57,783 nt of DNA, taken from positions 1-57,783 of IMG/VR virus record IMGVR_UViG_3300045988_161144; one strand, written 5' to 3'. Below are positions 1,493 to 57,783 of the stretch, one piece after another. Origin of the DNA: a virus. A program made the translations under genes and the position numbers. The notes under the pieces are model-generated. The model was not told where the DNA came from and searched no databases. It worked only from the letters and a program-made list of their open reading frames with translations. Numbering within the stretch: the stretch's first letter is position 1; each line of letters opens with the position of its first letter.

Positions 1493-4400
1493 TTAATATT
1501 GTATTTTCATTTCAACATAATCTATCCTGAACTCACTAACATTATATGATGCTGTAGACTTAAGATGACTTTCCTGCGGAATAATAAGTAATGCAAGGTT
1601 GTCTGATTCGATTGCAGATGCTTGTTCAGCAGTGAATGGGTGTGTAATAGTGAATGGTAAGTATGTGTTCTTGTTTTCTACTCCGAAGTTTCCTTGAGTG
1701 GTTTTTTCATCATAAACTATATTATTAATCACATCTTTTAATTGTAATTTTGGGAAATACATGTGTCCTCCAGTTATACCTCCGAACTCTCCGCAGAATA
1801 CTGTTGCTGTTACTGTACAAGCCTTGTTTGGTCGTGGGAATTTAAACACATTAAAATATATTTGAGCCGGAGTAGTTCTCAAATATGCGGAAACACTACT
1901 GTTATGTGTGCAGGTAATTGCAGTTGATGCACTACTATTATTTTCTCTTTTCTGCACTCTTGCAACATTCAATGAATCACTATTATATCCTTTAATTTTA
2001 TTATTAGTTCCAGCAGCACTTAATGATAAAGGCACACGAGTATGGGTAGTTATTGGTGCTGTTTTACCTGTTATCTTCACAGTATTTGAATATGTTGCTC
2101 TATTACTAATGAACTCATTAGTGGATTCTGCGAATTTACATATGAATGTCCCATTCTCTTTAACAGTTAATTTAACCTCACCATTCTCATCAGTTTTATA
2201 GGTAGTGTTGTTAATTAATAATTCAAAATTTGGTAGAATTTCCCCATGGTTATTTAATGCTGTTACTGTTAAAATATCTCCTTGTAGAACATACCCAGTA
2301 TTTTGATACGCGCCTCCAGAGAATTGTATATTCCCAATGGTTTTCACCACATTAACAGTATATGATTTTTCGCATGGAGCATAAGTCATATCCCCATTAA
2401 AAACTCCTAAAATATTATATTCTCCTTGATTTAATCTTAACGGTATTTTAGCAATTCCTGAATTATCGGTTGTTTTGTAATAATTTTTCCCATTAACGGT
2501 AAATGCAACACTCCTACCACCCAATAAATTATTTGATGAGTCTTTTAATGTCACACTTAAATAATCTCCAACTTCAACGGTAGTGGATATTACATCTGAT
2601 AAAACGGTTAATGTTCTTGGATTAATTGTATAAATAAAAGTACCAAAAGTATTCGAGTATGGTCCTGATGTATTGTTTCCTTTACCAATAACTCCTGCAG
2701 GTGTTATTTTTAATCTACCATTACTTGATCCATCGCCTAAGTTTAAATCATTAGTGTAGATGGGTACTGGAGGTCTTAATCTTTCAGGGATTTCATGTTT
2801 ACCATCATTTGGAAATAATCTGAAATAATATTCACCATCATTACCATAATCTGAGCTGTTCCCACTGAATTTATAAAATTGGACAATTACAATGTTTCCC
2901 AATTCATAGATGACTATATAATTCTGTGTTTTATCTGATTCATCACGATAAATATATGTTGTGGGGATTACTGAGGATAAAAAGTTTATTGGTGATTTAC
3001 CATCTAATGTTTTAGCATCTACTCCTGATTCATTAACAGATTCAACAATTTCTTCAGTGGATGGTGTTTTACCATCTTCTCCTTTGATTAATGACCAGGT
3101 GTATCTTGACGGGTCTTGACTTGTTTCCTGCACATAATCATAATATGTACCCATATATTTTCGATTAGTGCTGTTTTCTGTACTGAAATCTGTTTCACCT
3201 TTATCATCATTCGCATATGCAAAATGCACATAACCATCATTTGGTGCTTGAGGAAGACTTGCCCATAATGCAGGGGCAGAATAATTACTCCACACGCCAT
3301 TTATTTTTAATTGTTTACAAACCCATTCATACCCAAAATTATTACGAACTCCTTGAGGATTTTCAAACCATTGACCATCATCATCAGCATCATCATCACT
3401 ATCGTCCGATCTAACAATTATTGTTTTTGGTGGGGTTTCAGGTTGTGAATTGGAATTTGTTCTACAGAAGATATAATGTACATCATCACCATCTAATGCA
3501 GACAAACATAATATATTAACTGCTTGAGTTGAATTATCAGTATACTTAATTAGATTCCTACTCCACAAATATGGTTTCTCATCAGTTGTTGATGGTTTTA
3601 CTGTACTCCACCCATCTGTTGGTGAATTAACATATTCATTAGATATGGTATATTCTTCATATATGTTCAAAATGCCCTTACTTTCAACTTTAAAATAGAA
3701 ATATTTATTTACATCAGTAGAATCTAATAGATTATTATCATAATAATATCCAATAAAACTCCCACCTTCTTCATTTAAACCAGTTCCTATATCATCATAT
3801 GCATATTTGATGTGCATATAGTACATTACATCATTTAATGTGTATGATAATCCATCAACAGGTTTTATCTTCCAAGAATATTTACTAATATCTGTAGAAT
3901 CCACTACATTACCATCTACATAATACCCAATATATTTTTGAGGTTGTAAGCTTGTTTGACTAATATCTAAAGGATTATTTAATGTACAGTATCTTATATG
4001 CATATATAATGGTGAACCATCTTTAGTACCACATAATAATCCCTGACTTGTTTCAACACCACTGTCACCAGTAATACATACTGGTTCAGAGTATTTAACA
4101 CCATGATTACTTGTTATTTTAGTTCTACTCCAAATATATCTTCCAATAAGATGAGTTGGTGCATCTGTACTCCACCCTTCATCTGATTGGAGAGGTGGAG
4201 TTGTTCGTGATTTTGTTTGAATAAACTCAATATCCATATCTAAAATATTTTCCCCACCACCATTATTTGTACAGAATGGTTCAGTTTTAAGTTTAGCCAC
4301 ACCAGTATCAATAACATTCATAATCCACAAATATTTGTCCTTTATATCTGGAGGTAATGTAGTGCTCCACCCACTATCATCTTTAGAAGGTACATCAATA

Positions 4401-30905: not shown

Positions 30906-31700
30906 AAACAACCACAACCATAAAAAATATTATAAAAAAAATAACACCCTAACCATATACTGCACTATAATATTCCGAAGAATCAACCAATAAAACACCC
31001 TCACACATAAGTACCAACCCACTAAACAGGCAAAAATACTCATCATGATGATTATCATATAAGACAATATCATCAAAAACAAAAGGAAACCTATGATTAG
31101 ACACACAAAAATTCATCATACAAAAAAAATCCTATAAAAAAAATCATAATACAATATACATACACTATAATATGTCTTACCACATACGACCACAAACACA
31201 AAGAAACATCAGAAAAAAAATAAAAAACCAAAACAAAAAAGAATAAACACAATAAACACACACCAACATGAAAAAAATAAACACAACAATGTATGTCAAA
31301 TTTTGTGTTTTTGTTTTTGTTTTTTTGTGTTGTATTGTTTTTGTTTTTTTGTGGTGGTGGTGGTTGTTTGTAATTATTAGCAATTTTTTATTATTTTTTT
31401 AGTTATTTTTAGTTATTTTTAGCTATTGTTTATAGTTTTTAGTTATTATTAGCTGTTATTTATGATTATTAGCAATTTTTTAAGTATTAATAGCAATCAT
31501 TAAAGTAAAAATAGACGTTAAAATAAGAATAATAAGAATAATAAGGATAATAAAAGAATAATTAAGAATAAAAAAATAAGAATAATAAGAATAAAAAGAA
31601 TAAAAACAAACAATAAACAACAATAAAAATAATAAAAAGAATAATAATATGGATAATTATTATATATCCTATATTATTATGTATTGTGTTATGTTATGTT
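30906..31700. repeat. Low-complexity, strongly strand-asymmetric non-coding region. Blocks are G-depleted A+C-rich, then T+G-rich, then tandem TAGTTATTTTT-like repeats, then AATAAGAAT-like purine tract. Imperfect long palindrome centred near 31290
   Basis: Direct reading; switches of base composition; tandem short repeats; located just upstream (in transcription sense) of terS. Confidence 0.7.
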
Positions 31701-32116: not shown

Positions 32117-32896
32117 TTATTTATAATTATTTATAATCTCTTGTAATTCTTCTATATTCTTAGCATATGATATACAATCAGGGCAATTATAACACAAATA
32201 ATTATTACAGACATTATAAATAAAGTCTTCTACCTCGTTTAATAATGTCTTGTCTTTATATATTTGTTTCCTTAATTTCTTATTTGTTATTATTTCCTTT
32301 AATGAATATTCATATTCGTAATAATTTTTTGGATCTGCTTTTATAGAATAATAATAATTTATATATTTATGATTCAGATTTGAATAATATAAACCGTCTT
32401 CCTCTATAAAGTCATCTGAGACAAATATTCCTCTTGGTGTTGCTACTGCCCATCTGCAATTTGTAGCTTGAGATAATATATCTATTCCTTGTTGGTTTGC
32501 TTTTATACCATTCCTATATTTTCTTATATATGTGGCGGTGTCGTTTAAACCTTTTTCAAGTGTTAAATTGCTTATGGTTCCATTCATAAAATATACTGGT
32601 TTTCTGCCTGTGTATTCTGTAATATTTGGGTTATTCTTCTTAAATGGGTGTGTCTGTCTTTTATTCGTGCTTCCTTTGCTGGTTATTCTAAAATGTACTA
32701 TTTTTTCATAATTCTTATTATTGTATTTCTTAAATTCTCTTAAAAATTCGTTAAATTTCATGAATCCTTTTTTATAATAAACTTTGCCATTTTCTATTAT
32801 GGCATATCCTCCTCCGTCTGGGTTTGTTTCCCATGCTTCTTTAAGTTCGTTTTCTTCTATTTCTGTTCCTATTTTTGAATAAATAATTATACACAT
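32117..32896 (-). CDS. Class-II (Ntn) glutamine amidotransferase-like protein (259 aa), N-terminal Met-Cys nucleophile
   Basis: Begins MCIIIY.. (Cys2 as in GAT-II enzymes); adjacent to amidoligase-like gene with only 2 nt between them. Confidence 0.4.
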   Translation of the reverse strand: MCIIIYSKIGTEIEENELKEAWETNPDGGGYAIIENGKVYYKKGFMKFNEFLREFKKYNNKNYEKIVHFRITSKGSTNKRQTHPFKKNNPNITEYTGRKPVYFMNGTISNLTLEKGLNDTATYIRKYRNGIKANQQGIDILSQATNCRWAVATPRGIFVSDDFIEEDGLYYSNLNHKYINYYYSIKADPKNYYEYEYSLKEIITNKKLRKQIYKDKTLLNEVEDFIYNVCNNYLCYNCPDCISYAKNIEELQEIINNYK

Positions 32897-32898
32897 AT

Positions 32899-33867
32899 TT
32901 AATATCTCCTTGGTCTGTAAATGTCTTGGACATATCTTTCTTCAATCTTGTTTCCTATCATACAAGTATTTTTATAGATAATTGTCTTTTTCTCAAATGA
33001 TTTAATATCGTCTAATATTTGAGTATTATATGATGATTCATTAAATTTATTTAAAAATTTTCTTAACATAGTGTTAGAATATCTTCTATTTTTACATATT
33101 TCAGTAACTTGTTTAATTGATAATTTATTACTGTAATTTATTAATTCAGCAATAAAATAGATCCTTGAGCCTATAAGCTCGTGGTCTGTTGATGCGGAAA
33201 AACCGCGATACTCTATAGTTTCGCTATGTTGTAGGTTTACTAAAACTTCGTGAGTTTCGTCGTCGTAATCTAAATATTCTAACATTTCAATAGCTTCTGA
33301 TACATAATCAATATTTTGACGGCACCATTTGTCCCAATCTTGGCGGTACCTACCCGATACTTTAAATAGGCACCTTTGCCACATGCTACATAAAACAATA
33401 AATTTACAAATGTTTTCTGTGCTGTCGTGGAACCAATCTATTATGTCGTAATGAATATGTAAACCGGCACCATTTCCGCCTTCTGCTGATATATTATATA
33501 ATAATTCTTCAGCTTTTTCTATTGTTTCATCAATATTTAATGCTGGGGTTATAAATTCTACTCCGTCGTTATCTATTATACTACCGTCGTAAGTAGCTAT
33601 AATATTTTTATAACTGCTCCTATATTGTTTAATGTTAATGTTTCCGTTTTTTACTTCGTTTAGTAAGCTTCTTAAGCTTACATAAGTTAATTCTATTTCC
33701 GCTCCTACTTTTTTAGTTGCGGTTTCATCTACAAATATATTATATGAATGATAGCCATATAAAAAATCGTTAAGGTTACAACACCTTAACAATATACTTT
33801 CATCAGTTATTCCCATATTATTTATTATTTCTCTATATACCATTTCTAACAACTCCTTAATAATCAC
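32899..33867 (-). CDS. Amidoligase-like enzyme (322 aa; glutamine-synthetase-like fold family)
   Basis: N-terminal VGAEIELTY and GGNGAGLHIHYD motifs resemble the amidoligase family signatures (G.E.E.. / G.H.H). Confidence 0.4.
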   Translation of the reverse strand: MIIKELLEMVYREIINNMGITDESILLRCCNLNDFLYGYHSYNIFVDETATKKVGAEIELTYVSLRSLLNEVKNGNINIKQYRSSYKNIIATYDGSIIDNDGVEFITPALNIDETIEKAEELLYNISAEGGNGAGLHIHYDIIDWFHDSTENICKFIVLCSMWQRCLFKVSGRYRQDWDKWCRQNIDYVSEAIEMLEYLDYDDETHEVLVNLQHSETIEYRGFSASTDHELIGSRIYFIAELINYSNKLSIKQVTEICKNRRYSNTMLRKFLNKFNESSYNTQILDDIKSFEKKTIIYKNTCMIGNKIEERYVQDIYRPRRY

Positions 33868-34048: not shown

Positions 34049-34156
34049 CTTTTAATTTTTTTAAGTAATACTGTTGTACTACTCGTTACTCTATCTTATG
34101 TTCTATCTACTATTTATACTTTTTGGTTTTAGTGTGTGTTATGTTCTATATTATTG

Positions 34157-34221
34157 TTATTTTTCAGACGTTACTGTTAATGATCAACTTATTTATTTTT
34201 CAGACGTTACTGTTAATGATC
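34157..34221. repeat. Two tandem copies of 29-bp TTATTTTTCAGACGTTACTGTTAATGATC (period 36)
   Basis: Exact duplicate read directly. Confidence 0.85.
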
Positions 34222-34551
34222 CTATTTTTATATTATGATTTTTTTTATTTTCTGTCCTTGTTTTATATCTTATTTTAACACTTTATTTTAATTATTTTAC
34301 TACTTTTTACTTTAACTATTAATTTAATTGTGTGGTTCTTTAATTATTTTTATGGTGTTGGTGTTTTATTAGTTTATAGTATTGTCTTATCTATATTTAT
34401 TTGTTGATTTATTACAATTTCTTTAATTTTAATTTTATTTCATGATTTGTTTTTTATTGTGTCTGTTGCTGTTTGTGTTCGTGTTTTCTGTTGTTGCTTC
34501 AGCTTCAGCAATTGAATATATTATTATAGTTATTATATTCTTTATTGTGTT

Positions 34552-34580
34552 TATGCCTATTATGCCTATTATGCCTATTA
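34552..34580. repeat. Tandem 9-mer TATGCCTAT x3
   Basis: Read directly. Confidence 0.8.
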
Positions 34581-34677
34581 TTCATATTTTACATATTATC
34601 CACATTATATTATTTTAATATATTTTACTCATGATACAGATTATCCTGCGTCACTTACATTATATGGGTTTAGGTCT

Positions 34678-34872
34678 TTAATTCGTAGATGGTTCGGGGA
34701 TTTTTTTTAATTCGTAGATAAAATGGGTTTAATTCGTAGATAGATTTTAATTCGTAGATCATGTCCTTAATTCGTAGATAATTTATAAGTTTAATTCGTA
34801 GATGGTAAGAGTAATTTTAATTCGTAGATGGTAGATGGTTTTAGTTTACAAATAATAGTTTAATTCGTAGAT
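34678..34872. repeat. Array of eight direct 13-bp iteron-like repeats TTAATTCGTAGAT with irregular spacing (starts 34678, 34707, 34729, 34747, 34767, 34791, 34817, 34860); several extend to TTAATTCGTAGATGGTAGATGG
   Basis: Exact copies read directly in non-coding region; variable spacers 5-30 bp. Confidence 0.85.
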
Positions 34873-35485
34873 GGTAGATGGTTTAATAAAAAGATGGCTC
34901 TCCTTTAAATACTTCATTAATCAAAATTAATTATTAGAGGTTTATTAAAATTAATGTTTGAGGATTAAAATAACACGAACATAATATGTGATGGTTTTTT
35001 ATGAATTATCCAGTTTTCCCCAGCATATATTATGTTATCCAATATATTCTTCTAATTAATTTTAAACATATATTATAAATCATAAGGATTTAATGATTTA
35101 GCTCAACTCTATTATATTAAAACACTTGTTCATATTATATTAGACCTTTCTGTACATTGTTAAAAACGGGTATGACTTATAGGATAATCCAACATAATAT
35201 TAATAGATTAATTAAACCTCTAAAACAAATATTAGATAGTATAGGATTATCTAATGTGTCTTGTGTATTCAAACATTACATGAACTATTATCCTATTATA
35301 GAATGTGTGAATATTTAATTCTTGAATAAGATTATGTGATGGTATAGGTTTATTGTCTAAAGATATTCTTCATAATAATAATTTAACGGTCCCAAATTCC
35401 CATATACTGCGTATATGGGAGTTATTGTTATTATTATTGGCTTATTTTTTAATTCTGACATTTGTTCTTTTTAGATAATTAATCT

Positions 35486-35525
35486 ATATTGTCATATGAT
35501 CGCCTCCTATTGAATATGACAATAT
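35486..35525. terminator. Perfect 12-bp inverted repeat ATATTGTCATAT / ATATGACAATAT with 16-nt spacer, followed by T-rich tract; hairpin or operator
   Basis: Read directly. Confidence 0.5.
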
Positions 35526-35699
35526 TCTTTCTATTTTACTGTTTTTGTAAGTAGATTTGGATATGTTTTATTTTATATCGGATTTTTTATAGGTGTGTGT
35601 TGAATACTTATTTTTGTGGTTGATTAGGTTAGTTATTGTTGTATGTAATCATGTTTTAGTTTAGTTTTTAGATGATTATTTTTGTGTGTTTTATGTTTT

Positions 35700-35880
35700 T
35701 GTTTGTGTTATTTTTTCCATTTCCAAATCCATTTTCATTTTCATTTCCATTTCCATTTCTAAACTTGTTTTCATTTCCATTTCCTTTTTCAATCCCATTC
35801 TTATTTCATTTTTCATTTCTAATCTCATTTCCAAATCCATTTTCATTTTCATTTCCATTTCTAATTTTGTTTTTTTTGAA
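35700..35880. repeat. Block of degenerate TTCCATTT / CATTTTCATTTCC repeats including a roughly 38-bp unit present twice
   Basis: Read directly; ORFs over it translate to FPFPF / EMEMK low-complexity peptides. Confidence 0.7.
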
Positions 35881-36283
35881 TAGTTGGTGGGTGGAAAATA
35901 CCTTCCACCAATCTTCGCTTTGCACTTCAAATTCACTTCAATATTCGTGACAAAAAGGATTCTCTATCCTTCTTTTTTAAATTAGAGTATTATTTATATA
36001 TATTTATTGTTGAGAAGAAGGACTCTGGGGGGTATAAGAAGACTTTTGTTTTTATGTTTGTATAGTATAAAACAATACTATAATGAAAGTAAAATATACA
36101 CTCTCCTTTAAATACACCTATAATACAAATAAAGATATGAGATTAGAGAGAAAAAAAGAAAGTAATATGTGAGGCATATTTTTATAAATATGTTTCACAA
36201 AATTTTCCTAACAAAAAATATCTCATCTAATGATTAACAAACATAAAAAAGTAATAATAACTATACCTTGGAGGTGACAAACC

Positions 36284-36484
36284 ATGACTACTACATTACC
36301 TTTAGCACCAATCCGTAGAATAATGACTGAAGCAGGGTGTAAAAGAGTATCTGAAGATGCAGTAGCATTAATGGCTAAATATGCTGAATCAGCAATCTAC
36401 GAAGTTAGTGCAGAAGCAAAACATGCAACTGAACATGCTGGTAGAAATACTGTTCGTGTAGAAGATATTGAATTTGTAATTTAA
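36284..36484 (+). CDS. Archaeal histone (HMf/HMfB family, 66 aa)
   Basis: LPLAPIRRIM.EAG..RVSEDA ... HAGRNTVRVEDIEFV closely parallels HMfB [22 protein letters not shown] ... HAGRKTIKAEDIELA; RBS GGAGGTGA 6 nt upstream. Confidence 0.9.
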   Translation: MTTTLPLAPIRRIMTEAGCKRVSEDAVALMAKYAESAIYEVSAEAKHATEHAGRNTVRVEDIEFVI

Positions 36485-37143
36485 TATTTTCTCCATATAC
36501 ACCCATTTTTTAAGTATTTATGATTAGTCTACTATTAATGTTTTTTCTTATAATCATTGTCGTTCATTTTTTCATTATTAGTAGACTACTGATAAATATT
36601 TTATTACTAATGTCTATATTGATCTTTCTGTGGATTTGACAATATTTTTTCATCTTATTTTGATATTGTTAATTCCACACTCATTTTCTTTAATGATTCA
36701 TTTTTTTATAATTACTTTTTTTATAAACTATTAGAAAAACAATAAGTTTTATATAGTAGAATAAATAAATAAAATTTCATGTAAAAAAAATTATTAAATA
36801 ATATCCTTCGCAACATAGAACCATCAACTATTCTTAAATTCTCATATATACACCGTACTAATTTGTCTTCGTCGTAACAATTCTGAGAACACTCCATACT
36901 TTATTGTCTTTATGAGGCATAAATGAAGTGCCTTCAACTTTTCACAATATAGGTTGCACGAAACATTTTCAGATAATTTTTTTAAAAATAAGCCTTCTCC
37001 ATCAAGATAATCAAAAAGTATTATTAGAACTCTGAAAAGTATTATAAAAATTAAATAGAAACTATTATATAGTAGAAAGAATATAGTAATATTCGAGAAG
37101 CACAAATAAGTGTACTCAAAAAAACAACAAGGAGACAAACAAA

Positions 37144-37974
37144 ATGAAAAACAAAAACATAAAAACAAAAATAAAAGAATTAGAAAACAATGAAATATAC
37201 ATTGACAAATTCAATAAAGGATTAGTCATCTACAACAACAAACAAGAATATGTCATACCAGATTTGATGAGGAAAGTCACAATAAAACATGGAATAGAAA
37301 AAACCACCTTCAATCAGGAAGAACTAACACAATTATTCCTAAAACATAAAGTTTATGAAAAAATAACATCAGCAGATTACAATAGAGTATTAACTGAATA
37401 TGAATTCATAAAACAAAACATTCCAGACACATATGCATCAAAACATAAAACACCTTTCAAAGAAGCAAAAGAATATGCATTAAACTATTATATTAACAAC
37501 GAATATGTTCCAGGAGTATTGGAAAACACATTAAATATATTAGAATATTATCCGAGCATATATAATTTGCCATTGAAAGGATTCCATTACAAATACAATT
37601 ATGTCGCACAAATACTTGAAGACTACAATGTAAATCGTTTTGGGAACATCACAAAACCATTATACAATAAAACCTTCGCAGTATTAGAACATAATACAGA
37701 TACATTAATATTAAATAAATCTGGAAACAAAATAATAAATGGTGTAATATACAAAAATTCAATCAATGCTCCAAACCTACTCATGATATTATGGGGTAGA
37801 GCATATGACAATATAATGAATGATCCCAAAGTACAATATGGGTACAAATATAATCAAGAACCAGACACATACCAAGTAGCAGATTTCACTGGTTGTTTAA
37901 ATCAAATTAATGAATTATATGGTAAAGATAAAGTTGTATGTGATTTTAGAATTAACAGAGGAGTTGGATTATGA
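37144..37974 (+). CDS. Hypothetical protein (276 aa), lysogeny-region candidate
   Basis: Six-frame ORF following histone gene, translationally coupled to next small ORF. Confidence 0.4.
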   Translation: MKNKNIKTKIKELENNEIYIDKFNKGLVIYNNKQEYVIPDLMRKVTIKHGIEKTTFNQEELTQLFLKHKVYEKITSADYNRVLTEYEFIKQNIPDTYASKHKTPFKEAKEYALNYYINNEYVPGVLENTLNILEYYPSIYNLPLKGFHYKYNYVAQILEDYNVNRFGNITKPLYNKTFAVLEHNTDTLILNKSGNKIINGVIYKNSINAPNLLMILWGRAYDNIMNDPKVQYGYKYNQEPDTYQVADFTGCLNQINELYGKDKVVCDFRINRGVGL

Positions 37975-38117
37975 GGAGAATGACTAAAAATTTAGTTGTA
38001 TATGTTGAAGATTATAATGAATTGAATAATATCAAAATCAGTTCTTCAGAAACATATGATAATGTAATTATTAGAGTATTAAATGAGGTGGAGAATCGTG
38101 GCAAAGAAAGAAACTAA
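37971..38117 (+). CDS. Small RHH-like protein (48 aa), not in ORF track
   Basis: ATG overlapping the stop of the upstream gene (ATGA); beta-strand-then-helix pattern NLVVYVEDYNELNNIK. Confidence 0.3.
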   Translation: MRRMTKNLVVYVEDYNELNNIKISSSETYDNVIIRVLNEVENRGKERN

Positions 38118-38496
38118 AACTATCAAAATATCGATTGAAGCATACACGAGATTAAAACATTGGAAGAATATTGATGAATCTAATCCTCAAGCAATGCATA
38201 GGTTGCTTGAAGAATATAAATCATATGTTCATATTGAGAGTCAGGAATATGTTGTTGATTATAAAGACACATCACTTCATTTTAAAGTTGTGGGTGATGA
38301 ATTAAAATATTATCATGTTTCCGAGGATAACTGGTGGAGTTCTATTGATGCATGGGTTGATGTAGCAAATGGTTTCCATTATGTGGAAATCATTGATTTT
38401 TTCAAGAATTTCTTGTTGAAGGAATCTGCAATGATTTTACTTAAGGACATGGGTGATGAATTAGTTTATGGAGATTATATTATCAGGAAATTATAG
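38083..38496 (+). CDS. Putative DNA-binding regulator (137 aa) with RHH-like N-terminus (KTIKISIEAYTRLKHWK)
   Basis: RBS GAGGTGG upstream; RHH-like motif. Confidence 0.4.
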   Translation: MRWRIVAKKETKTIKISIEAYTRLKHWKNIDESNPQAMHRLLEEYKSYVHIESQEYVVDYKDTSLHFKVVGDELKYYHVSEDNWWSSIDAWVDVANGFHYVEIIDFFKNFLLKESAMILLKDMGDELVYGDYIIRKL

Positions 38497-38546
38497 TAAA
38501 TATTATATATTATAGCTGATATAATAAATACTATGATTATTTTTTG

Positions 38547-38565
38547 AGTGTTTTAGTGAAACACT
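38547..38565. terminator. Hairpin AGTGTTT-TAGTG-AAACACT flanked by T/A tracts, between regulator gene and int
   Basis: Perfect 7-bp stem read directly. Confidence 0.35.
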
Positions 38566-38648
38566 ACTAAAAAAATCATAGTGTTCAAGAATACTTTTCA
38601 AATGGGGTCTTGGACAATATAAATGTTTAGTGGATACAAATTATATCT

Positions 38649-39722
38649 GTGATAAATATGGTTTTCGAACAATTCGTACAAGAACGAAACTTATCAAAAG
38701 AAACAAGGCGGAGATATAAAACAATATTAAAAAAATATGCCTTGTTCAATGATATGAGTTTGGAAGAATTGTTAGATGAAGCAGACAAAGAAGAAATCAA
38801 AGGAGTAAGATGGAAAAATAGAAAACTCAAAACAAGACTAATTGAATTTAGAAAATATTTGTATAATTCATTAAGGTCATCAACTGCAAAAATGTATTTT
38901 ATAAGTGTAGTATCATTTTACAGGCATTTTGAGATAGAAATCCATAAATTACCTTCAACAAGTAATGTGAATGTTCATTCACCTGAACCAGTAGAGTTTT
39001 CAGATATTCCCACAAAAGAATTACTTCAAAAAGTGATAAACGAATCAAAAAACAATACATTCAGAACAGTAATATATTTCATGTCAAGTACAGGATTAGC
39101 AATGATTGATACATTAAATTTAACTGTTAAAGATTTCCTTACTGCATGCAATGTTGAGAGTATTGATGAATTAGATAACTTATCAGAATATGTTTCCACA
39201 TTCAAATTAAAACGGAGGAAAACTGGAAAATATTTCTATACATTTGCAACACCTGAAACAACAAAACAAATAATAAATTATATCCATTCAAAACCAAATG
39301 TGAACGTGGGTGATAAATTATTTGATATAAGTGCAGATTACTTATACCAACTGTTTCGAAAAACAAATGATAGATTAGGTAAAGGTAGAAAAAATAATCA
39401 GAGTTTGTTCAGAAGCCATATGTTAAGGAAGTATCATGCAACAACATTACTCAATTCTGGTTTGACTCTTGAACAAATAGATGCTTTACAAGGTAGGAGT
39501 AAGGAAATTACTCACCAATCATATTTTCTTGATGATCCCAAAGTTTTGAAAGAAATTTATATGGAGCATATGGATAAATTAACCATATTTGGAGATAGTG
39601 AAGAAATACAGGAATTAAAGGAGAAAAATCGAGAATACGAGGAGAAATTTGTGGAACAAGAAGAATTAATTAAGGAAATTGTTGAAGCACAGGAAAAATT
39701 AGAGAAACTATTGGAACTCTGA
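38649..39722 (+). CDS. int: Tyrosine integrase / site-specific recombinase (357 aa)
   Basis: N-terminal core-binding-like region; catalytic motifs R (RTVIYFMSSTGLA), H-x-x-R (FRSHMLRKYHATT), and C-terminal GRSKEITHQSY with Tyr. Confidence 0.85.
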   Translation: MINMVFEQFVQERNLSKETRRRYKTILKKYALFNDMSLEELLDEADKEEIKGVRWKNRKLKTRLIEFRKYLYNSLRSSTAKMYFISVVSFYRHFEIEIHKLPSTSNVNVHSPEPVEFSDIPTKELLQKVINESKNNTFRTVIYFMSSTGLAMIDTLNLTVKDFLTACNVESIDELDNLSEYVSTFKLKRRKTGKYFYTFATPETTKQIINYIHSKPNVNVGDKLFDISADYLYQLFRKTNDRLGKGRKNNQSLFRSHMLRKYHATTLLNSGLTLEQIDALQGRSKEITHQSYFLDDPKVLKEIYMEHMDKLTIFGDSEEIQELKEKNREYEEKFVEQEELIKEIVEAQEKLEKLLEL

Positions 39723-42953: not shown

Positions 42954-43507
42954 ATTATTCTGAAGATTTTGAAATAAGTGATGTGACTAATGAAAGAGAT
43001 GCAGGTAGTGTATTTGATGAATTCGGTATTGAACCAGAGTTTGTTGAAGAACAGACTGGAGGTATTGAAATACCATTCGATTTCAATGTAACTGAATTGA
43101 AAGATGCATATGATGGGGAATATCTTCAAGGTAAACCATATTTGTCTGATGTTATTGAATATGATTATGAAGACAAAGACACAGGTGAGAAAAAGAAAAA
43201 CACTTACTGTGAATTAGTTCTGATTGATTCTGATGAAAAAGAAGCATATAAAATTAGAATTAATCTAAAATCAGATAAGAATGTACAGGAAAATGTACAT
43301 AAATCATCTAAACTCTATGCATTAGTTGTAGGATTAATTAACTTAAAAAATAAAGGTGTATTTAAAAATTATAATCATCTTAAAAAAGTTAATTTAGACA
43401 ATATTAGAAATATTGTGAGCGGGATTGATGATTTAACTGTTAAAGTTAAAGAAGTTCAATCAAACAATTTCTCATATAATACATTTGTAATCGTTGATGA
43501 TGAATAA
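42950..43507 (+). CDS. Acidic hypothetical protein (185 aa)
   Basis: ORF coupled to neighbours. Confidence 0.4.
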   Translation: MNYSEDFEISDVTNERDAGSVFDEFGIEPEFVEEQTGGIEIPFDFNVTELKDAYDGEYLQGKPYLSDVIEYDYEDKDTGEKKKNTYCELVLIDSDEKEAYKIRINLKSDKNVQENVHKSSKLYALVVGLINLKNKGVFKNYNHLKKVNLDNIRNIVSGIDDLTVKVKEVQSNNFSYNTFVIVDDE

Positions 43508-45222
43508 TGAATTTGAAAGAGGGTGTACCTCTTGATAATGGAACATATGTTAAGGTGAGTCCTGAAGGCTCACAATTTCATTATGTTTTCTTTGAAGGGG
43601 GTAAGATGATTTATGAAACAAGGAATCCTGCTCCTTTAAGATTATCTCCACAGTCCTTAACTGGTAGGAAGATAAGATCATGTTTTCCAGAAAATATACA
43701 AAAAAATACAGATAAATCTTATCAGCGATTTGATGAGGTTAAACAAGTTCTGCATGAATACATTAAACTTCTTGAATTAGAGGAGCATAAACAATCAGTT
43801 CAACAGAAACTGGAGGAAGAAGCAAAAGAGAAATTAGAATGGGAAGATGCATTAAAGAAATATGAAAGTATTGATGACCCATTAATTTGGCTTAGGAGTA
43901 TGATTGATTGGGTGAGTGCAGGTGAATCAAATAATATTATGATTGCATTTCTTACATATTGTAGTCAGATTATACTTGAACACCCAATATCTCTAATTAT
44001 GTTAGGGGAAGGTAGTTCAGGTAAAAACCATATTATTGAAATTGCTAAAATGTTATGTCCAGAGGAATATTTTATCAACATGAACCACCCTACACTTGCT
44101 TCCATATTCCGTAAGGCTGATGAAGACCCATATTATTTCCACCGTAAAATTGTAAGCATGGGTGATTTGGGTGGTGATAATGATCATGAAGAGGTTGCTG
44201 ATGCAAAAAATATTTTCAAAGAACTTCAAACTGAAGGAGAATTGAGTCGTCCTGTTTCAAGAAAAGTTGATGGTGATTGGGTTGTTGTAGACTTGTATTT
44301 GAAAGGTAAACCATGCCTTAACTATTCAACAGTACCTAATCATAACTTTGATAGTCAAGAGAAGAGTCGTGCAATGTTATTGACTCCACGAACAGATAAT
44401 CAGAAATCTTTCTTTAAAATGATGACTATGATTGAATTTAAGGGAGGATATAATTATAATATGTATCATGAAATCTTCAATTATTTATCCGAATTTATGC
44501 CTTTGGTTGTCAGGGGTTTAGTGGATAAATTTAAGAATACTAATGTCATTAATCCCTATGTCACTTGTATTCAGGATTTTGTTAAAGGTTCAGATTATTT
44601 TAAAAGAGATTTTCCAAAATACAATGCGATAATGCAAGTCATTGCTATATTAAATTATTCTAATAAAAAAATACACACTATTGATGGGAAACAATCAATA
44701 TTTGTGAATATGGGGGATTTATTAATTTTCCTTGAATTGTTTAATTTGTATAATGATGCTATGCAGTCTAATTTGTCTTTGAGAGCCACCCAAATATATC
44801 AGGATTTACTGGATAATTTTGATGTGTATGCACTAAATAGTCCCGATAAGGATAATTATAATGAATTTGGTATTACTATTAATGATTATATGCTTCAATC
44901 TGAACAGAATCTTTCTAAAAGGAGTCTCCAAACATACTTTAAAGAATTACGAGATAAGAATATTATTAGAGTTGTTGGGGCTTTTTGGAAATCACCAATC
45001 TACCAATTGAATAAAAATCATAAAAAGAAAGTTTATGATTTGATGGACTGTCTTGATGATCATATGCAGAACATACTTGCTGATGTATATGGTTATGGTG
45101 TATTAGATGATATTTTAATTGAAAGTAATGTTGAGGATATTGATATATTTTCACAACACTCCCTAATTAATCCACCACCATGGCAGGATAATAAATGTGT
45201 CGGTGATGTTAATAGTAAATGA
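43507..45222 (+). CDS. P-loop ATPase (571 aa), putative replication initiator / SF3-like helicase
   Basis: Walker A LIMLGEGSSGKNHI, Walker B-like KIVSMGDLG, possible motif C STVPN. Confidence 0.4.
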   Translation: MNLKEGVPLDNGTYVKVSPEGSQFHYVFFEGGKMIYETRNPAPLRLSPQSLTGRKIRSCFPENIQKNTDKSYQRFDEVKQVLHEYIKLLELEEHKQSVQQKLEEEAKEKLEWEDALKKYESIDDPLIWLRSMIDWVSAGESNNIMIAFLTYCSQIILEHPISLIMLGEGSSGKNHIIEIAKMLCPEEYFINMNHPTLASIFRKADEDPYYFHRKIVSMGDLGGDNDHEEVADAKNIFKELQTEGELSRPVSRKVDGDWVVVDLYLKGKPCLNYSTVPNHNFDSQEKSRAMLLTPRTDNQKSFFKMMTMIEFKGGYNYNMYHEIFNYLSEFMPLVVRGLVDKFKNTNVINPYVTCIQDFVKGSDYFKRDFPKYNAIMQVIAILNYSNKKIHTIDGKQSIFVNMGDLLIFLELFNLYNDAMQSNLSLRATQIYQDLLDNFDVYALNSPDKDNYNEFGITINDYMLQSEQNLSKRSLQTYFKELRDKNIIRVVGAFWKSPIYQLNKNHKKKVYDLMDCLDDHMQNILADVYGYGVLDDILIESNVEDIDIFSQHSLINPPPWQDNKCVGDVNSK

Positions 45223-57047: not shown

Positions 57048-57783
57048 TGTTTGATTTTAAGGTTTTTAACCTTCTGAATCCTGTTTCTGTTTGTGTAAAA
57101 ACAGAAATACTGGGTATCACAAGTTTTACCTTGATGTTTGTTTAATATTAATTCACCATTTTGGTACAATTTGACATTATTGGGTTCTACAATGAACTTC
57201 AAGTGGTCATTAGGGTTAATATCTCGTGTTATGTTTGCTTCAGTTTTACTTGAGCTTGTGCTTGAAGGATATGTACTGATTATGAATTTGTTTGTTCCAC
57301 TATCCCAATGACTCCCATACCAAAAAGTATCTCCAGAATATTTGGCATCAGGGTATAGTTCTAAACCCATTTTTTGGTTTCCTCCTCCATCTACCCAGTC
57401 AAATTCGATAGTGTATGGTGGAGTGAAGTATTTGCTTGGTAATCTATATTGTTGTTCGGAATTACTGTTTGTACTAAATTTAGTACCCTCTGAATCAATA
57501 TTTACAATAATGTCACTTGTTCTAACCCATCTGTCGGATTCACTGGTCATAGTATCATAAACTAAACAATCTTCAAGGTTTAGTATATTTGAATAATAAA
57601 CATTCGTTCCAGATAAGTATTTGACTTTCACATTTACATCACCAGCACCATTACAATTATAATTAAATACTGCATTACCAGTATTATCAGTAGTAACACT
57701 ATCCGCAACCTCTGCATCATTCAATAATACAGTTAAAGCAGTATTCTTAAGATTAGATGATAAGGTGATTGGTAAATCATCAC
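57035..57783 (-). CDS. Tail fibre / adhesin C-terminal part including receptor-binding-like domain (ends ...KNLKIKHYSE); N-terminus continues across junction to 1478
   Basis: Frame open to window end; identical 79 nt at 1..79 in same phase as ORF starting at 1478. Confidence 0.6.
   Translation of the reverse strand, partial: DDLPITLSSNLKNTALTVLLNDAEVADSVTTDNTGNAVFNYNCNGAGDVNVKVKYLSGTNVYYSNILNLEDCLVYDTMTSESDRWVRTSDIIVNIDSEGTKFSTNSNSEQQYRLPSKYFTPPYTIEFDWVDGGGNQKMGLELYPDAKYSGDTFWYGSHWDSGTNKFIISTYPSSTSSSKTEANITRDINPNDHLKFIVEPNNVKLYQNGELILNKHQGKTCDTQYFCFYTNRNRIQKVKNLKIKHYSE
57582..57601. repeat. Inverted repeat right copy AGTATATTTGAATAATAAAC within tail fibre gene
   Basis: See left copy. Confidence 0.85.
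57705..57783. repeat. Terminal direct repeat, identical to 1..79
   Basis: Direct comparison. Confidence 0.9.

Follow-up and report, generated by a model that had tools for sequence, protein, structure and literature searches.

The stretch of viral DNA analysed here, positions 1 to 57,783 of IMG/VR virus record IMGVR_UViG_3300045988_161144 (the window, meaning this whole stretch of 57,783 nucleotides, nt), is a temperate tailed virus of Methanobrevibacter smithii and contains an array of eight exact copies of the 13-mer TTAATTCGTAGAT, all on the + strand within 34678-34872. The array is selectively maintained, located in a control region and made up of sequence-specific sites for a predicted DNA-binding protein, and it most likely controls the particle-building genes or starts DNA replication. 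Comparison with relatives leads us to think that it is this virus's version of a cis-element present at the head of the late operon in a group of tailed viruses of Methanobrevibacter. The function proposed here, with some hesitation, is that of a lineage-specific operator, on which a small viral protein would assemble to switch the late operon and an adjacent early-type promoter. Among the readings considered, this regulatory one is the best supported because of the fixed place and orientation of the array relative to the late promoter, its co-variation with a small neighbouring gene in relatives, and the predicted early-type promoter that abuts it.

The array shows the following composition, and is listed on the - strand since this is the orientation that it has in common with the homologous arrays relative to the late genes.
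34678 to 34881, - strand: array of eight 13-mers, which read TTAATTCGTAGAT on the + strand and ATCTACGAATTAA on the - strand.
34678, 34707, 34729, 34747, 34767, 34791, 34817 and 34860, + strand: starts of the 13-mer copies, all exact matches.
34817 to 34838 and 34860 to 34881: copies 7 and 8, lengthened by GGTAGATGG to TTAATTCGTAGATGGTAGATGG.
The distances from start to start are 29, 22, 18, 20, 24, 26 and 43 nt, and the spacers, of 5-30 bp, are unrelated in sequence. The expectation from base composition is about 0.005 copies of the 13-mer per strand of the window; when up to two mismatches are allowed 11 sites are observed, a count reached in none of 100 shuffles. The eight exact copies, the 5-30 bp spacers and the two extended copies given in the preliminary description were all confirmed by direct reading of the sequence, and the array is indeed found at the divergence point of the leftward and rightward gene blocks, which are separated by a non-coding gap of 2,235 nt (34049-36283). 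A scan of a genome collection for the repeat pair found the same 13-mer only inside 19-bp intergenic tandem repeats (TTTAATTCGTAGATTCGCA) of bacteria of the candidate phyla radiation, Moranbacteria and Buchananbacteria (L002 6872-6903 and L003 4277-4353); these repeats were judged to be probably unrelated to the virus array.

Conservation in related viruses, on which the earlier proposal had been made to depend, is found at two levels: the 13-mers are conserved in close relatives, and homologous arrays exist in distant ones. The close relatives were compared in an alignment of 16 distinct gap sequences, in which one of the 104 repeat positions is variable against nine of the 100 spacer positions (Fisher p = 0.009). 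Since the repeats vary less than the spacers, this alignment argues for purifying selection on the sites themselves. The sole repeat variant is a C-to-T change in copy 5, present in L008, L009 and L013, and the 78 nt immediately to the left of the array contain 23 variable positions. The number of copies in these relatives is seven to eight. Their genomes are mosaic, with 97-98% identity to the window from about 34600 to 38562 and 80-93% in the late module, which implies that the array was inherited together with a block containing a non-coding stretch, the histone gene, a gene encoding a 276-aa protein and two genes encoding ribbon-helix-helix (RHH) proteins.

Distant lineages were reached through homologues of the large terminase subunit (TerL), 57-70% identical to that of the window. 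Their arrays contain 6-13 copies of units of 19-22 nt, extend over 200-360 bp, and show the forms ATCTACCA-N-CTTAAAG or TTTAC-N-TTACGAAG, distributed as follows.
L039: ATCTACCA-N3-5-CTTAAA(G), 11 copies, one of them ATCTACGAAAACTTAAAA.
L052: ATCTACCA-N3-5-CTTAAA(G), 12 copies.
L047: ACCTACCA-N-CTTAAAG, at least 10 copies.
L028, L030, L033 and L032: TTTAC-N-(T/C)(T/A)ACGAAG or AAGTCA-N-CTTACGAAG, 6-7 copies.
On the late-gene strand the window unit reads ATCTACGAATTAAA, which by its sequence is a shortened ATCTACCA-N-CTTAAA(G) form; it also has TACGAA in common with the TTTAC-N-(T/C)(T/A)ACGAAG units. In all these lineages the array site is non-coding and follows the last small 'middle' gene and T-rich stretches. 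A late TATA element (TTTATATAGTAT or TATATATAGTAG) is located 0.2-0.45 kb downstream of the array, and is usually followed by a GC-rich leader and the late operon. The strand of the array carrying ACGAA or ATCTAC is the late coding strand. The placement expected of an operator array, between the last early or middle gene and the late promoter and in a fixed orientation, is thus found in L028, L030, L032, L033, L039, L047 and L052, and the window array is likewise 560 nt upstream of a TATA element presumably homologous to the late TATA of these relatives. Comparison of these genomes shows a position that is fixed throughout the distant relatives and an orientation to the late operon that is fixed in nearly all lineages.

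Several features of the region between the array and the late genes are particular to the relatives. Islands of GC-rich DNA and poly-G runs 12-14 G long are found there (L033 4810-4880, L052 5200-5400, L047 150-260 and L028 4880-5830), together with additional tandem repeats, among them a 25-nt tandem unit present 3.5 times in L052; L030, L032 and L033 keep a promoter-like TTTATATAGTATGCTAAC followed by a long GC-rich leader. The window does not contain this GC-rich material. The closest named record, Caudoviricetes sp. vir249 (BK063678.1), from the human gut and with a Methanobacteriales host, has a TerL 45% identical to that of the window and carries an unannotated array (L131 2329-2509) made up of roughly ten TTGTGTCA units, some of which recur with a period of 11 nt. 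Perfect tandem arrays, with a unit length of 13, 18, 25 or 27 nt, are found 2.5-4.4 kb upstream of TerL in a group of more remote viruses whose TerL is 45-49% identical (L056 1-125, L068 1-130, L071 1-125, L075 1-140 and L057 6328-6490), and several contigs of near-genome length terminate inside them.

The type of array co-varies with the small gene immediately upstream, as the comparison of the distant genomes shows, and not with the small terminase subunit (TerS), TerL, the integrase or the histone. Two families of such small genes, here named P92 and P102, are found.
L039 4619-4897, L052 4399-4677, L114 11480-11779, L033 3872-4519, L028 4069-4380 and L030 3622-3930: P92 or P102 genes.
P92 (92-99 aa) precedes the ATCTAC...CTTAAA arrays of L039, L052 and L047, and a diverged, fused P92 precedes the array variant of L033. 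P102 (about 102 aa), unrelated to P92, precedes the TTTAC...ACGAAG arrays of L028 and L030. Neither matched a Pfam or PHROG family of known function. L028 and L039 have TerL proteins 91% identical, yet both the array type and the adjacent gene differ between them. TerS was rejected as the determinant of array type: viruses with the same type have TerS proteins 25-34% identical, and the most similar TerS pair (L052 and L033, 45%) shows different types. From about 7 kb on, TerS and TerL included, L032 is 99.3% identical to L033; because the module formed by the array and its neighbours is non-homologous between the two, array and neighbours are exchanged as a unit. P92 and P102 thus track the array type in the relatives, whereas in the window the array shows only block linkage to the RHH genes.

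The gap of the window contains, besides the array, the following elements.
34102 to 34118, - strand: late-operon promoter-like element, TATAAATA (34111-34118) then GTAGATAGA (34102-34110).
34157 to 34185 and 34193 to 34221: 29-bp duplicate.
34551 to 34599: TATGCCTAT repeats.
34898 to 34912, + strand: archaeal promoter-like element CTCTCCTTTAAATAC, with a TATA box at 34904-34911 and a start predicted near 34935.
34935 to 35450, + strand: conserved non-coding stretch downstream of this element, with a terminator-like hairpin (35395-35423) and then a T-run.
35486 to 35497 and 35514 to 35525: arms of a perfect 12-bp hairpin.
35714 to 35861, - strand: second repeat block, of the (T)GGAAATGAA type, with a 6-nt period, about 0.8 kb to the early-gene side of the array.
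36101 to 36115, + strand: second copy of CTCTCCTTTAAATAC, upstream of the histone gene (36284-36484).
The duplicate, the TATGCCTAT repeats, the hairpin and the periodic block had all been noted previously and are present. No open reading frame (ORF) of the gap is kept in relatives, and no Rfam match was obtained for the whole window at gathering thresholds or for the gap at E values up to 5. Gap DNA compared with 50,697 phage records gave no match.

The two promoter-like elements flank the array. On its left, the late TATA element TATAAATAGTAG (- strand, 34107-34118) is 72 nt upstream of the first leftward ATG (34039) and about 560 nt from the array; the 34102-34118 element fits the motif (T)ATA(A/T)ATAGTA(G/T) found downstream of the arrays in L028, L030, L032 and L033, which suggests that it is homologous to the late TATA of the relatives and functions as the late promoter. 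On its right, CTCTCCTTTAAATAC begins 17 nt past the array, is directed away from it and is invariant in relatives; it has just two exact copies in the window, the other being upstream of the histone gene, and it is a putative promoter. About 150 nt of promoter and leader are duplicated between the array-side and histone-side sites (34898-35000 and 36101-36181), the duplication taking in roughly the first 100 nt of the leader; one duplicate is upstream of the histone gene, whose 5' leader measures about 145 nt, and the other heads the non-coding stretch. The latter, 34935-35450, is the best-conserved part of the gap, with one variable position in 158 nt (35184-35341), and is possibly an RNA of about 500 nt; on the + strand it folds slightly better than shuffled sequences do (z-score -2.7), the value for the - strand being -1.6. 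It is regarded as non-coding because its only plausible ORF has no start codon in most relatives: a 48-aa ORF resembling a helix-turn-helix protein (35172-35318) was rejected as a gene, most relatives having AAG for ATG and a 1-nt deletion upstream. The relatives hold P92 at this place on the opposite strand, and the window lineage seems to have replaced the P92 gene by this oppositely oriented non-coding unit. Covariation in the hairpins at 35395-35423 and 35486-35525 shows few changes, with conflicting indications of the strand. The 35486-35525 hairpin has on the + strand a 16-nt loop, GATCGCCTCCTATTGA, which resembles the anti-Shine-Dalgarno end of 16S rRNA, and on the - strand AGGAGGCGATC followed by a three-codon ORF.

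The window, L030, L032, L033, L039, L043 and L052 all have the (T)GGAAATGAA block 0.7-1 kb from the array, on its early side.
L030 3095-3298, L039 4096-4380 and L052 3956-4145: (T)GGAAATGAA blocks.
It is considered a DNA-level motif because it is kept whatever reading frame holds it. Gene callers translate the block of the window into a peptide of the type (EM/KM)n, which has DLEMEKITQTKT as its end and varies in its number of repeats. The contig IMGVR_UViG_3300045988_157560 ends (L001 1-36) in an Illumina adapter, AGATCGGAAGAGCACACGTCTGAACTCCAGTCAC, fused to viral sequence inside the block at about window position 35750. The T-rich DNA at 34442-34618 (+ strand) and 31100-31700 gives spurious hydrophobic ORFs, such as a 58-aa ORF at 34442; the segment 34351-34578 is wholly missing from L008. 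In L008, L009, L010, L012 and L013 there are about 300 nt extra at around window position 35865, containing a gene for a 61-aa winged-helix protein (TrmB/HTH_45-like) just upstream of the histone gene. This gene is not present in the window, and the distant L028 has a homologue (3766-4032) located upstream of its array by about 600 nt.

In the window, the best candidates for the protein that binds the array are encoded by two overlapping genes, proposed on their linkage to it.
37971 to 38496, + strand: two overlapping RHH-type genes, of 48 aa (37971-38117) and 137 aa (38083-38496).
38540 to 38648, no strand: attP region, with the breakpoint shared with integrated proviruses at 38562; int starts at 38649.
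The RHH N-terminus was read from the sequence and gives a weak hit to the Pfam family VapB_antitox. The 137-aa protein is homologous to an RHH/DUF7557 gene heading the int operon of L114, and in L043 and L029 RHH genes are immediately upstream of other, unrelated arrays. An RHH centromere of the ParR-parC type was considered and rejected: RHH genes are present, and inspection of the 276-aa gene upstream of them by eye revealed no Walker A motif. A search of 5.8 billion proteins yielded just two clusters, both nearly identical to the 276-aa protein, which matches no Pfam or PHROG family and gave a single-sequence AlphaFold model with a pLDDT of 33, which is unusable.

According to the operator proposal, the small viral protein would load cooperatively onto the direct repeats and form an extended nucleoprotein complex, which would set the state of the flanking promoters, namely the rightward early-type promoter 17 nt past the last repeat and the leftward late promoter about 560 nt to the left. 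The array would be the operator part of an early-to-late switch. The binding of protein, the identity of the binder (the 48-aa and 137-aa RHH candidates) and the transcriptional output are all inferences. Several points weigh against this proposal. Known archaeal activators and repressors act directly at the TFB-recognition element (BRE), the TATA box or the transcription start. Here, 8-13 sites are spread over 200-360 bp at a distance of 200-560 bp from the late TATA box, an uncommon arrangement for the sites of a transcription factor and one closer in appearance to a centromere or to the iterons of plasmids and phages. L058 shows a related motif in the reverse orientation. No homologue of P92 or P102 was found in the window (hmmsearch --max; tblastn at E = 50), so the link between protein and array that is seen in the relatives is missing there and the binder in the window is a guess. 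The right-hand block also shows low diversity (98% identity), and the conservation of the array is therefore partly due to recent shared ancestry.

An iteron-type replication origin, at which a viral initiator would bind the eight repeats, melt AT-rich DNA and load the replication machinery, for example the 571-aa ATPase, is the main rival to the operator proposal; it is possible, if rather unlikely, and it accounts for how many sites there are and how far they extend better than does any transcription-factor site known in archaea. Phage P4 ori/crr and plasmid iteron origins operate by binding of an initiator to repeats. Iterons are several asymmetric direct repeats in the same orientation, and eight exact 13-mers of this kind are found in the window; the 8-13 sites over 200-360 bp and the 19-22-nt units of the relatives fit iteron origins best, and a lineage-specific sequence that co-varies with an adjacent small gene recalls a Rep protein and its iterons. 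DNA of low stability is found on both sides within 160-450 nt (34229-34440 and around 35042), the virus carries its own RecT, ATPase and nucleotide-metabolism enzymes, and a conserved non-coding, putatively transcribed stretch abuts the array. However, the stability minima of the genome are elsewhere (36704 and 31567) and are not the AT-rich minima near the array. Origins are usually in or beside the initiator gene, whereas the array of the window is 8-10 kb from the replication genes and has no conserved ORF beside it, and that of L047 is across the divergent switch region from the replication and recombination genes, which belong to an operon that diverges at 2.5-3.5 kb from it. None of the window ORFs scanned gave an Orc1/Cdc6 domain, and the constant link with the start of the late operon is not needed by an origin. 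The check by cumulative GC skew suggested in the preliminary description does give a minimum in the region of the array, at 33-37 kb, but this coincides with the flip in gene orientation and carries no information on an origin. GC skew was rejected as an origin test since it is confounded by gene strand: L028, L030, L032 and L033 have no change of gene direction at the array, and no change in the sign of the skew either. These results are compatible with an origin and lend it no support beyond the iteron-like look of the repeats.

Recognition by the origin machinery of the host was considered too. The origin recognition box (ORB) motif of Methanobacteriaceae, TT[TA]CACTTGAAAT (PMC4164010), is matched 102 times in the window, where 129 matches would be expected, and the matches do not cluster in the gap. 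Mimicry of host ORBs by the array was rejected, as the motif is not enriched and the 13-mers are all direct, none being inverted. The common archaeal ORB motif is TCCA[CG]T[TG]GAAA[TC][GA]AAGGGGT (PMC4164010), and the unit of the TGGAAATGAA block corresponds to its 3' half (positions 6-15). The gap may conceivably be a two-part viral origin, kept throughout the tailed viruses of Methanobrevibacter and formed by the pan-lineage TGGAAATGAA block and the lineage-specific array, and this is a doubtful idea, less probable than a plain iteron origin. The TGGAAATGAA block would recruit the Orc1/Cdc6 of the host or another conserved factor, the array with its cognate small protein (P92, P102 or RHH) would set initiation specificity and incompatibility, and the conserved transcript between both parts would activate or prime initiation. 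If this is true, no origin architecture would have been defined earlier for viruses of the archaeon that dominates the human gut.

A role as a packaging site is improbable, more so than an iteron origin. In such a pac or cos site, an oligomer of the small terminase would bind the repeats and TerL would cut nearby, starting directional packaging. This would suit an array that heads the TerS/TerL operon in a fixed orientation and that in vir249 and other more distant relatives is about 0.5-0.7 kb upstream of TerS; the GC-rich islands and poly-G tracts after the arrays of L033, L047 and L052 are like some cos sites, and an HNH-type gene precedes the array of L032. The independence of array type from TerS (25-34% identity within a type, and different types in L052 and L033 at 45%), and the different arrays of L028 and L039 in spite of TerL proteins 91% identical, argue against it, and the array of the window is 4.2 kb and about nine genes from terS. 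Several contigs end in arrays, but the break points of the circular assemblies are unrelated, no fixed end is found at the array, and the clearest case, a contig broken inside an array, is a circular assembly with a 127-nt assembler overlap. Contig ends were discarded as evidence of physical termini, being uninformative, because tandem arrays and strain heterogeneity at repeats can break assemblies.

The remaining explanations are unlikely. The integrase arm-type sites and the histone-binding array that the preliminary description had offered beside its general proposal did not hold up, while the part of that proposal that describes a maintained array of sequence-specific sites in a control region stands. 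The repeats are asymmetric and direct, like arm-type sites, and genes for a tyrosine integrase and an archaeal histone are less than 4 kb away; nevertheless, either role is very unlikely. Homology with the window ends exactly at 38562 in seven integrated copies, whereas it extends through int, with 98% identity, in two excised ones; attP is therefore placed upstream of int and after the gene for the 137-aa RHH protein, at a distance of 3.7 kb from the array, and no 13-mer is found near it even with two mismatches. For a histone, the spacing of 18-43 bp shows neither 30-bp nor 10-bp regularity, no histone homologue was found in the approximately 10 kb retrieved upstream of TerL in the distant relatives that keep homologous arrays, and archaeal histones are not known to recognise 13-bp sequences. 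A role at the level of RNA, in which the transcribed UUAAUUCGUAGAU motif would serve as a sponge or decoy for an RNA-binding protein, for instance as a mimic of a CRISPR repeat handle, is still more improbable. Cas12a repeat handles end in GUAGAU, and the AAUU...GUAGAU of the unit resembles the two ends of the handle, a likeness that is a lead only; promoters flank the array region. However, both predicted promoters are directed away from the array, the unit does not have the UCUAC arm needed for the stem of the handle, the 5-30 nt spacers are irregular, no Rfam match was obtained, and the units of the relatives differ in precisely the relevant part. For the hosts, M. smithii, type I-B and III-A CRISPR systems are reported (PMC11375127). 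A CRISPR array or mimic was rejected on the irregular 5-30 nt spacers, the lack of Rfam matches and the absence of any cas genes seen.

Bases 1-79 of the window are identical to 57705-57783, which makes it a complete, circular assembly with a length of about 57.7 kb; a second assembly of the same virus, of 57,556 nt, is opened elsewhere, roughly at window position 12.2 kb. The - strand contains the gene for TerL, a block of genes from portal to tail and genes for tail or adhesin proteins of very large size, and a lysin encoded by the window carries a pseudomurein-binding repeat. The leftward operon shows the order 63-aa gene, amidoligase-like and Ntn-hydrolase-like genes, TerS, TerL and then the structural genes. 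In the fragment 32117-33867 (- strand) an amidoligase-like gene (PF12224) opens the late operon and is followed by a gene for a protein that starts with MC..., as in N-terminal-nucleophile hydrolases, a gene pair that is kept in L028, L030 and L033. A second low-GC, repeat-rich gap is found within the late block at about 31.1-31.7 kb. The + strand contains the genes encoding the archaeal histone, the two RHH-type proteins, the tyrosine integrase, RecT, the 571-aa ATPase, a thymidylate-synthase-like enzyme, a dCTP deaminase and an ERCC4 nuclease. The 571-aa ATPase (43507-45222) has no Pfam, PHROG or PDB relative, and its earlier 'SF3-like' label is tentative.

This element is found in many metagenome contigs, either excised, with int after the RHH gene, or integrated beside host genes, and one flanking host gene is identical to a glycosyltransferase of the MraY family of Methanobrevibacter (ABQ86271.1). 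Past 38562, the integrated copies L014, L015, L017-L020 and L022 show a 151-aa ORF and then the MraY-family glycosyltransferase gene. The int gene stays whole on integration, unlike the split integrases of the SSV type. Identity with MSTV1 was considered and rejected, the description of MSTV1 mentioning no histone, and the MSTV1 papers describe neither the virus of the window nor such arrays.

Almost nothing is known of the cis-acting control DNA of viruses of M. smithii, the main archaeon of the human gut, and the array of the closest public record, vir249, is unannotated. The locus defined here comprises a pan-lineage GGAAATGAA block, a lineage-specific array, a small linked gene family without known relatives (P92 or P102) and a conserved late promoter. 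It supplies short DNA probes and small proteins for binding assays, and offers a handle on the switch of the provirus to particle production or on the start of replication. The co-variation between the array and the neighbouring gene predicts, in a way that can be tested, which protein binds which array.

Compared with archaeal ORBs, the gap shows clustered short repeats in a long AT-rich intergenic region and an adjoining ORB-like TGGAAATGAA block, but the 13-mer is unlike an ORB, there is no inversion around an unwinding element and no orc1/cdc6 was found in the window. Arrays bound by RHH proteins include the ParR-parC system of plasmid R1, the omega heptads of pSM19035 and the tandem-repeat operators of SSV1 F55. 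Like them, the window has direct repeats able to take up many RHH dimers, and it has RHH genes in linkage with its array, while in L043 and L029 such genes directly adjoin arrays; in contrast to them, no partition NTPase was found in the window and the repeats are set apart by variable spacers instead of being contiguous. The virus of the window also integrates, so that it has no obvious need for a centromere. In vir249 the genome plan is the same as in the window, with a leftward early block and a rightward late block, and an unannotated 1.5-kb gap contains the TTGTGTCA array immediately upstream of the TerS/TerL operon, although the TerL proteins are only 45% identical, the repeat unit is unrelated and the array is much nearer terS.

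Iteron systems, such as P1 oriR/incA, RK2 oriV and phage P4 ori/crr, which is bound by the alpha primase-helicase, also show many asymmetric direct repeats in one orientation; as in these systems, the arrays are lineage-specific, have units of 19-22 nt in the relatives, co-vary with a neighbouring gene and, like P4 and P1 incA, are irregularly spaced. The window differs from them in its core of 13 bp, the absence of an adjacent initiator gene, the distance from the replication genes and the lack of any compositional or positional sign of an origin found at the array. The late genes of temperate siphoviruses are controlled by lambda Q with its binding element and by the activators RinA, ArpU and Alt, and in the lactococcal phage TP901-1 the targets of Alt are direct repeats that precede the late promoter. 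These regulators have 2-4 sites abutting the promoter, against 8-13 sites over 200-360 bp and 0.2-0.56 kb from the TATA box here; the transcription machinery here is archaeal, P92 and P102 show no detectable similarity to them, and the window has no adjacent gene. The relatives of the window nevertheless resemble these siphoviruses in having a small last gene before the late operon, with the presumed sites between this gene and the late promoter, and in that the gene and its sites are swapped together as a lineage-specific module.

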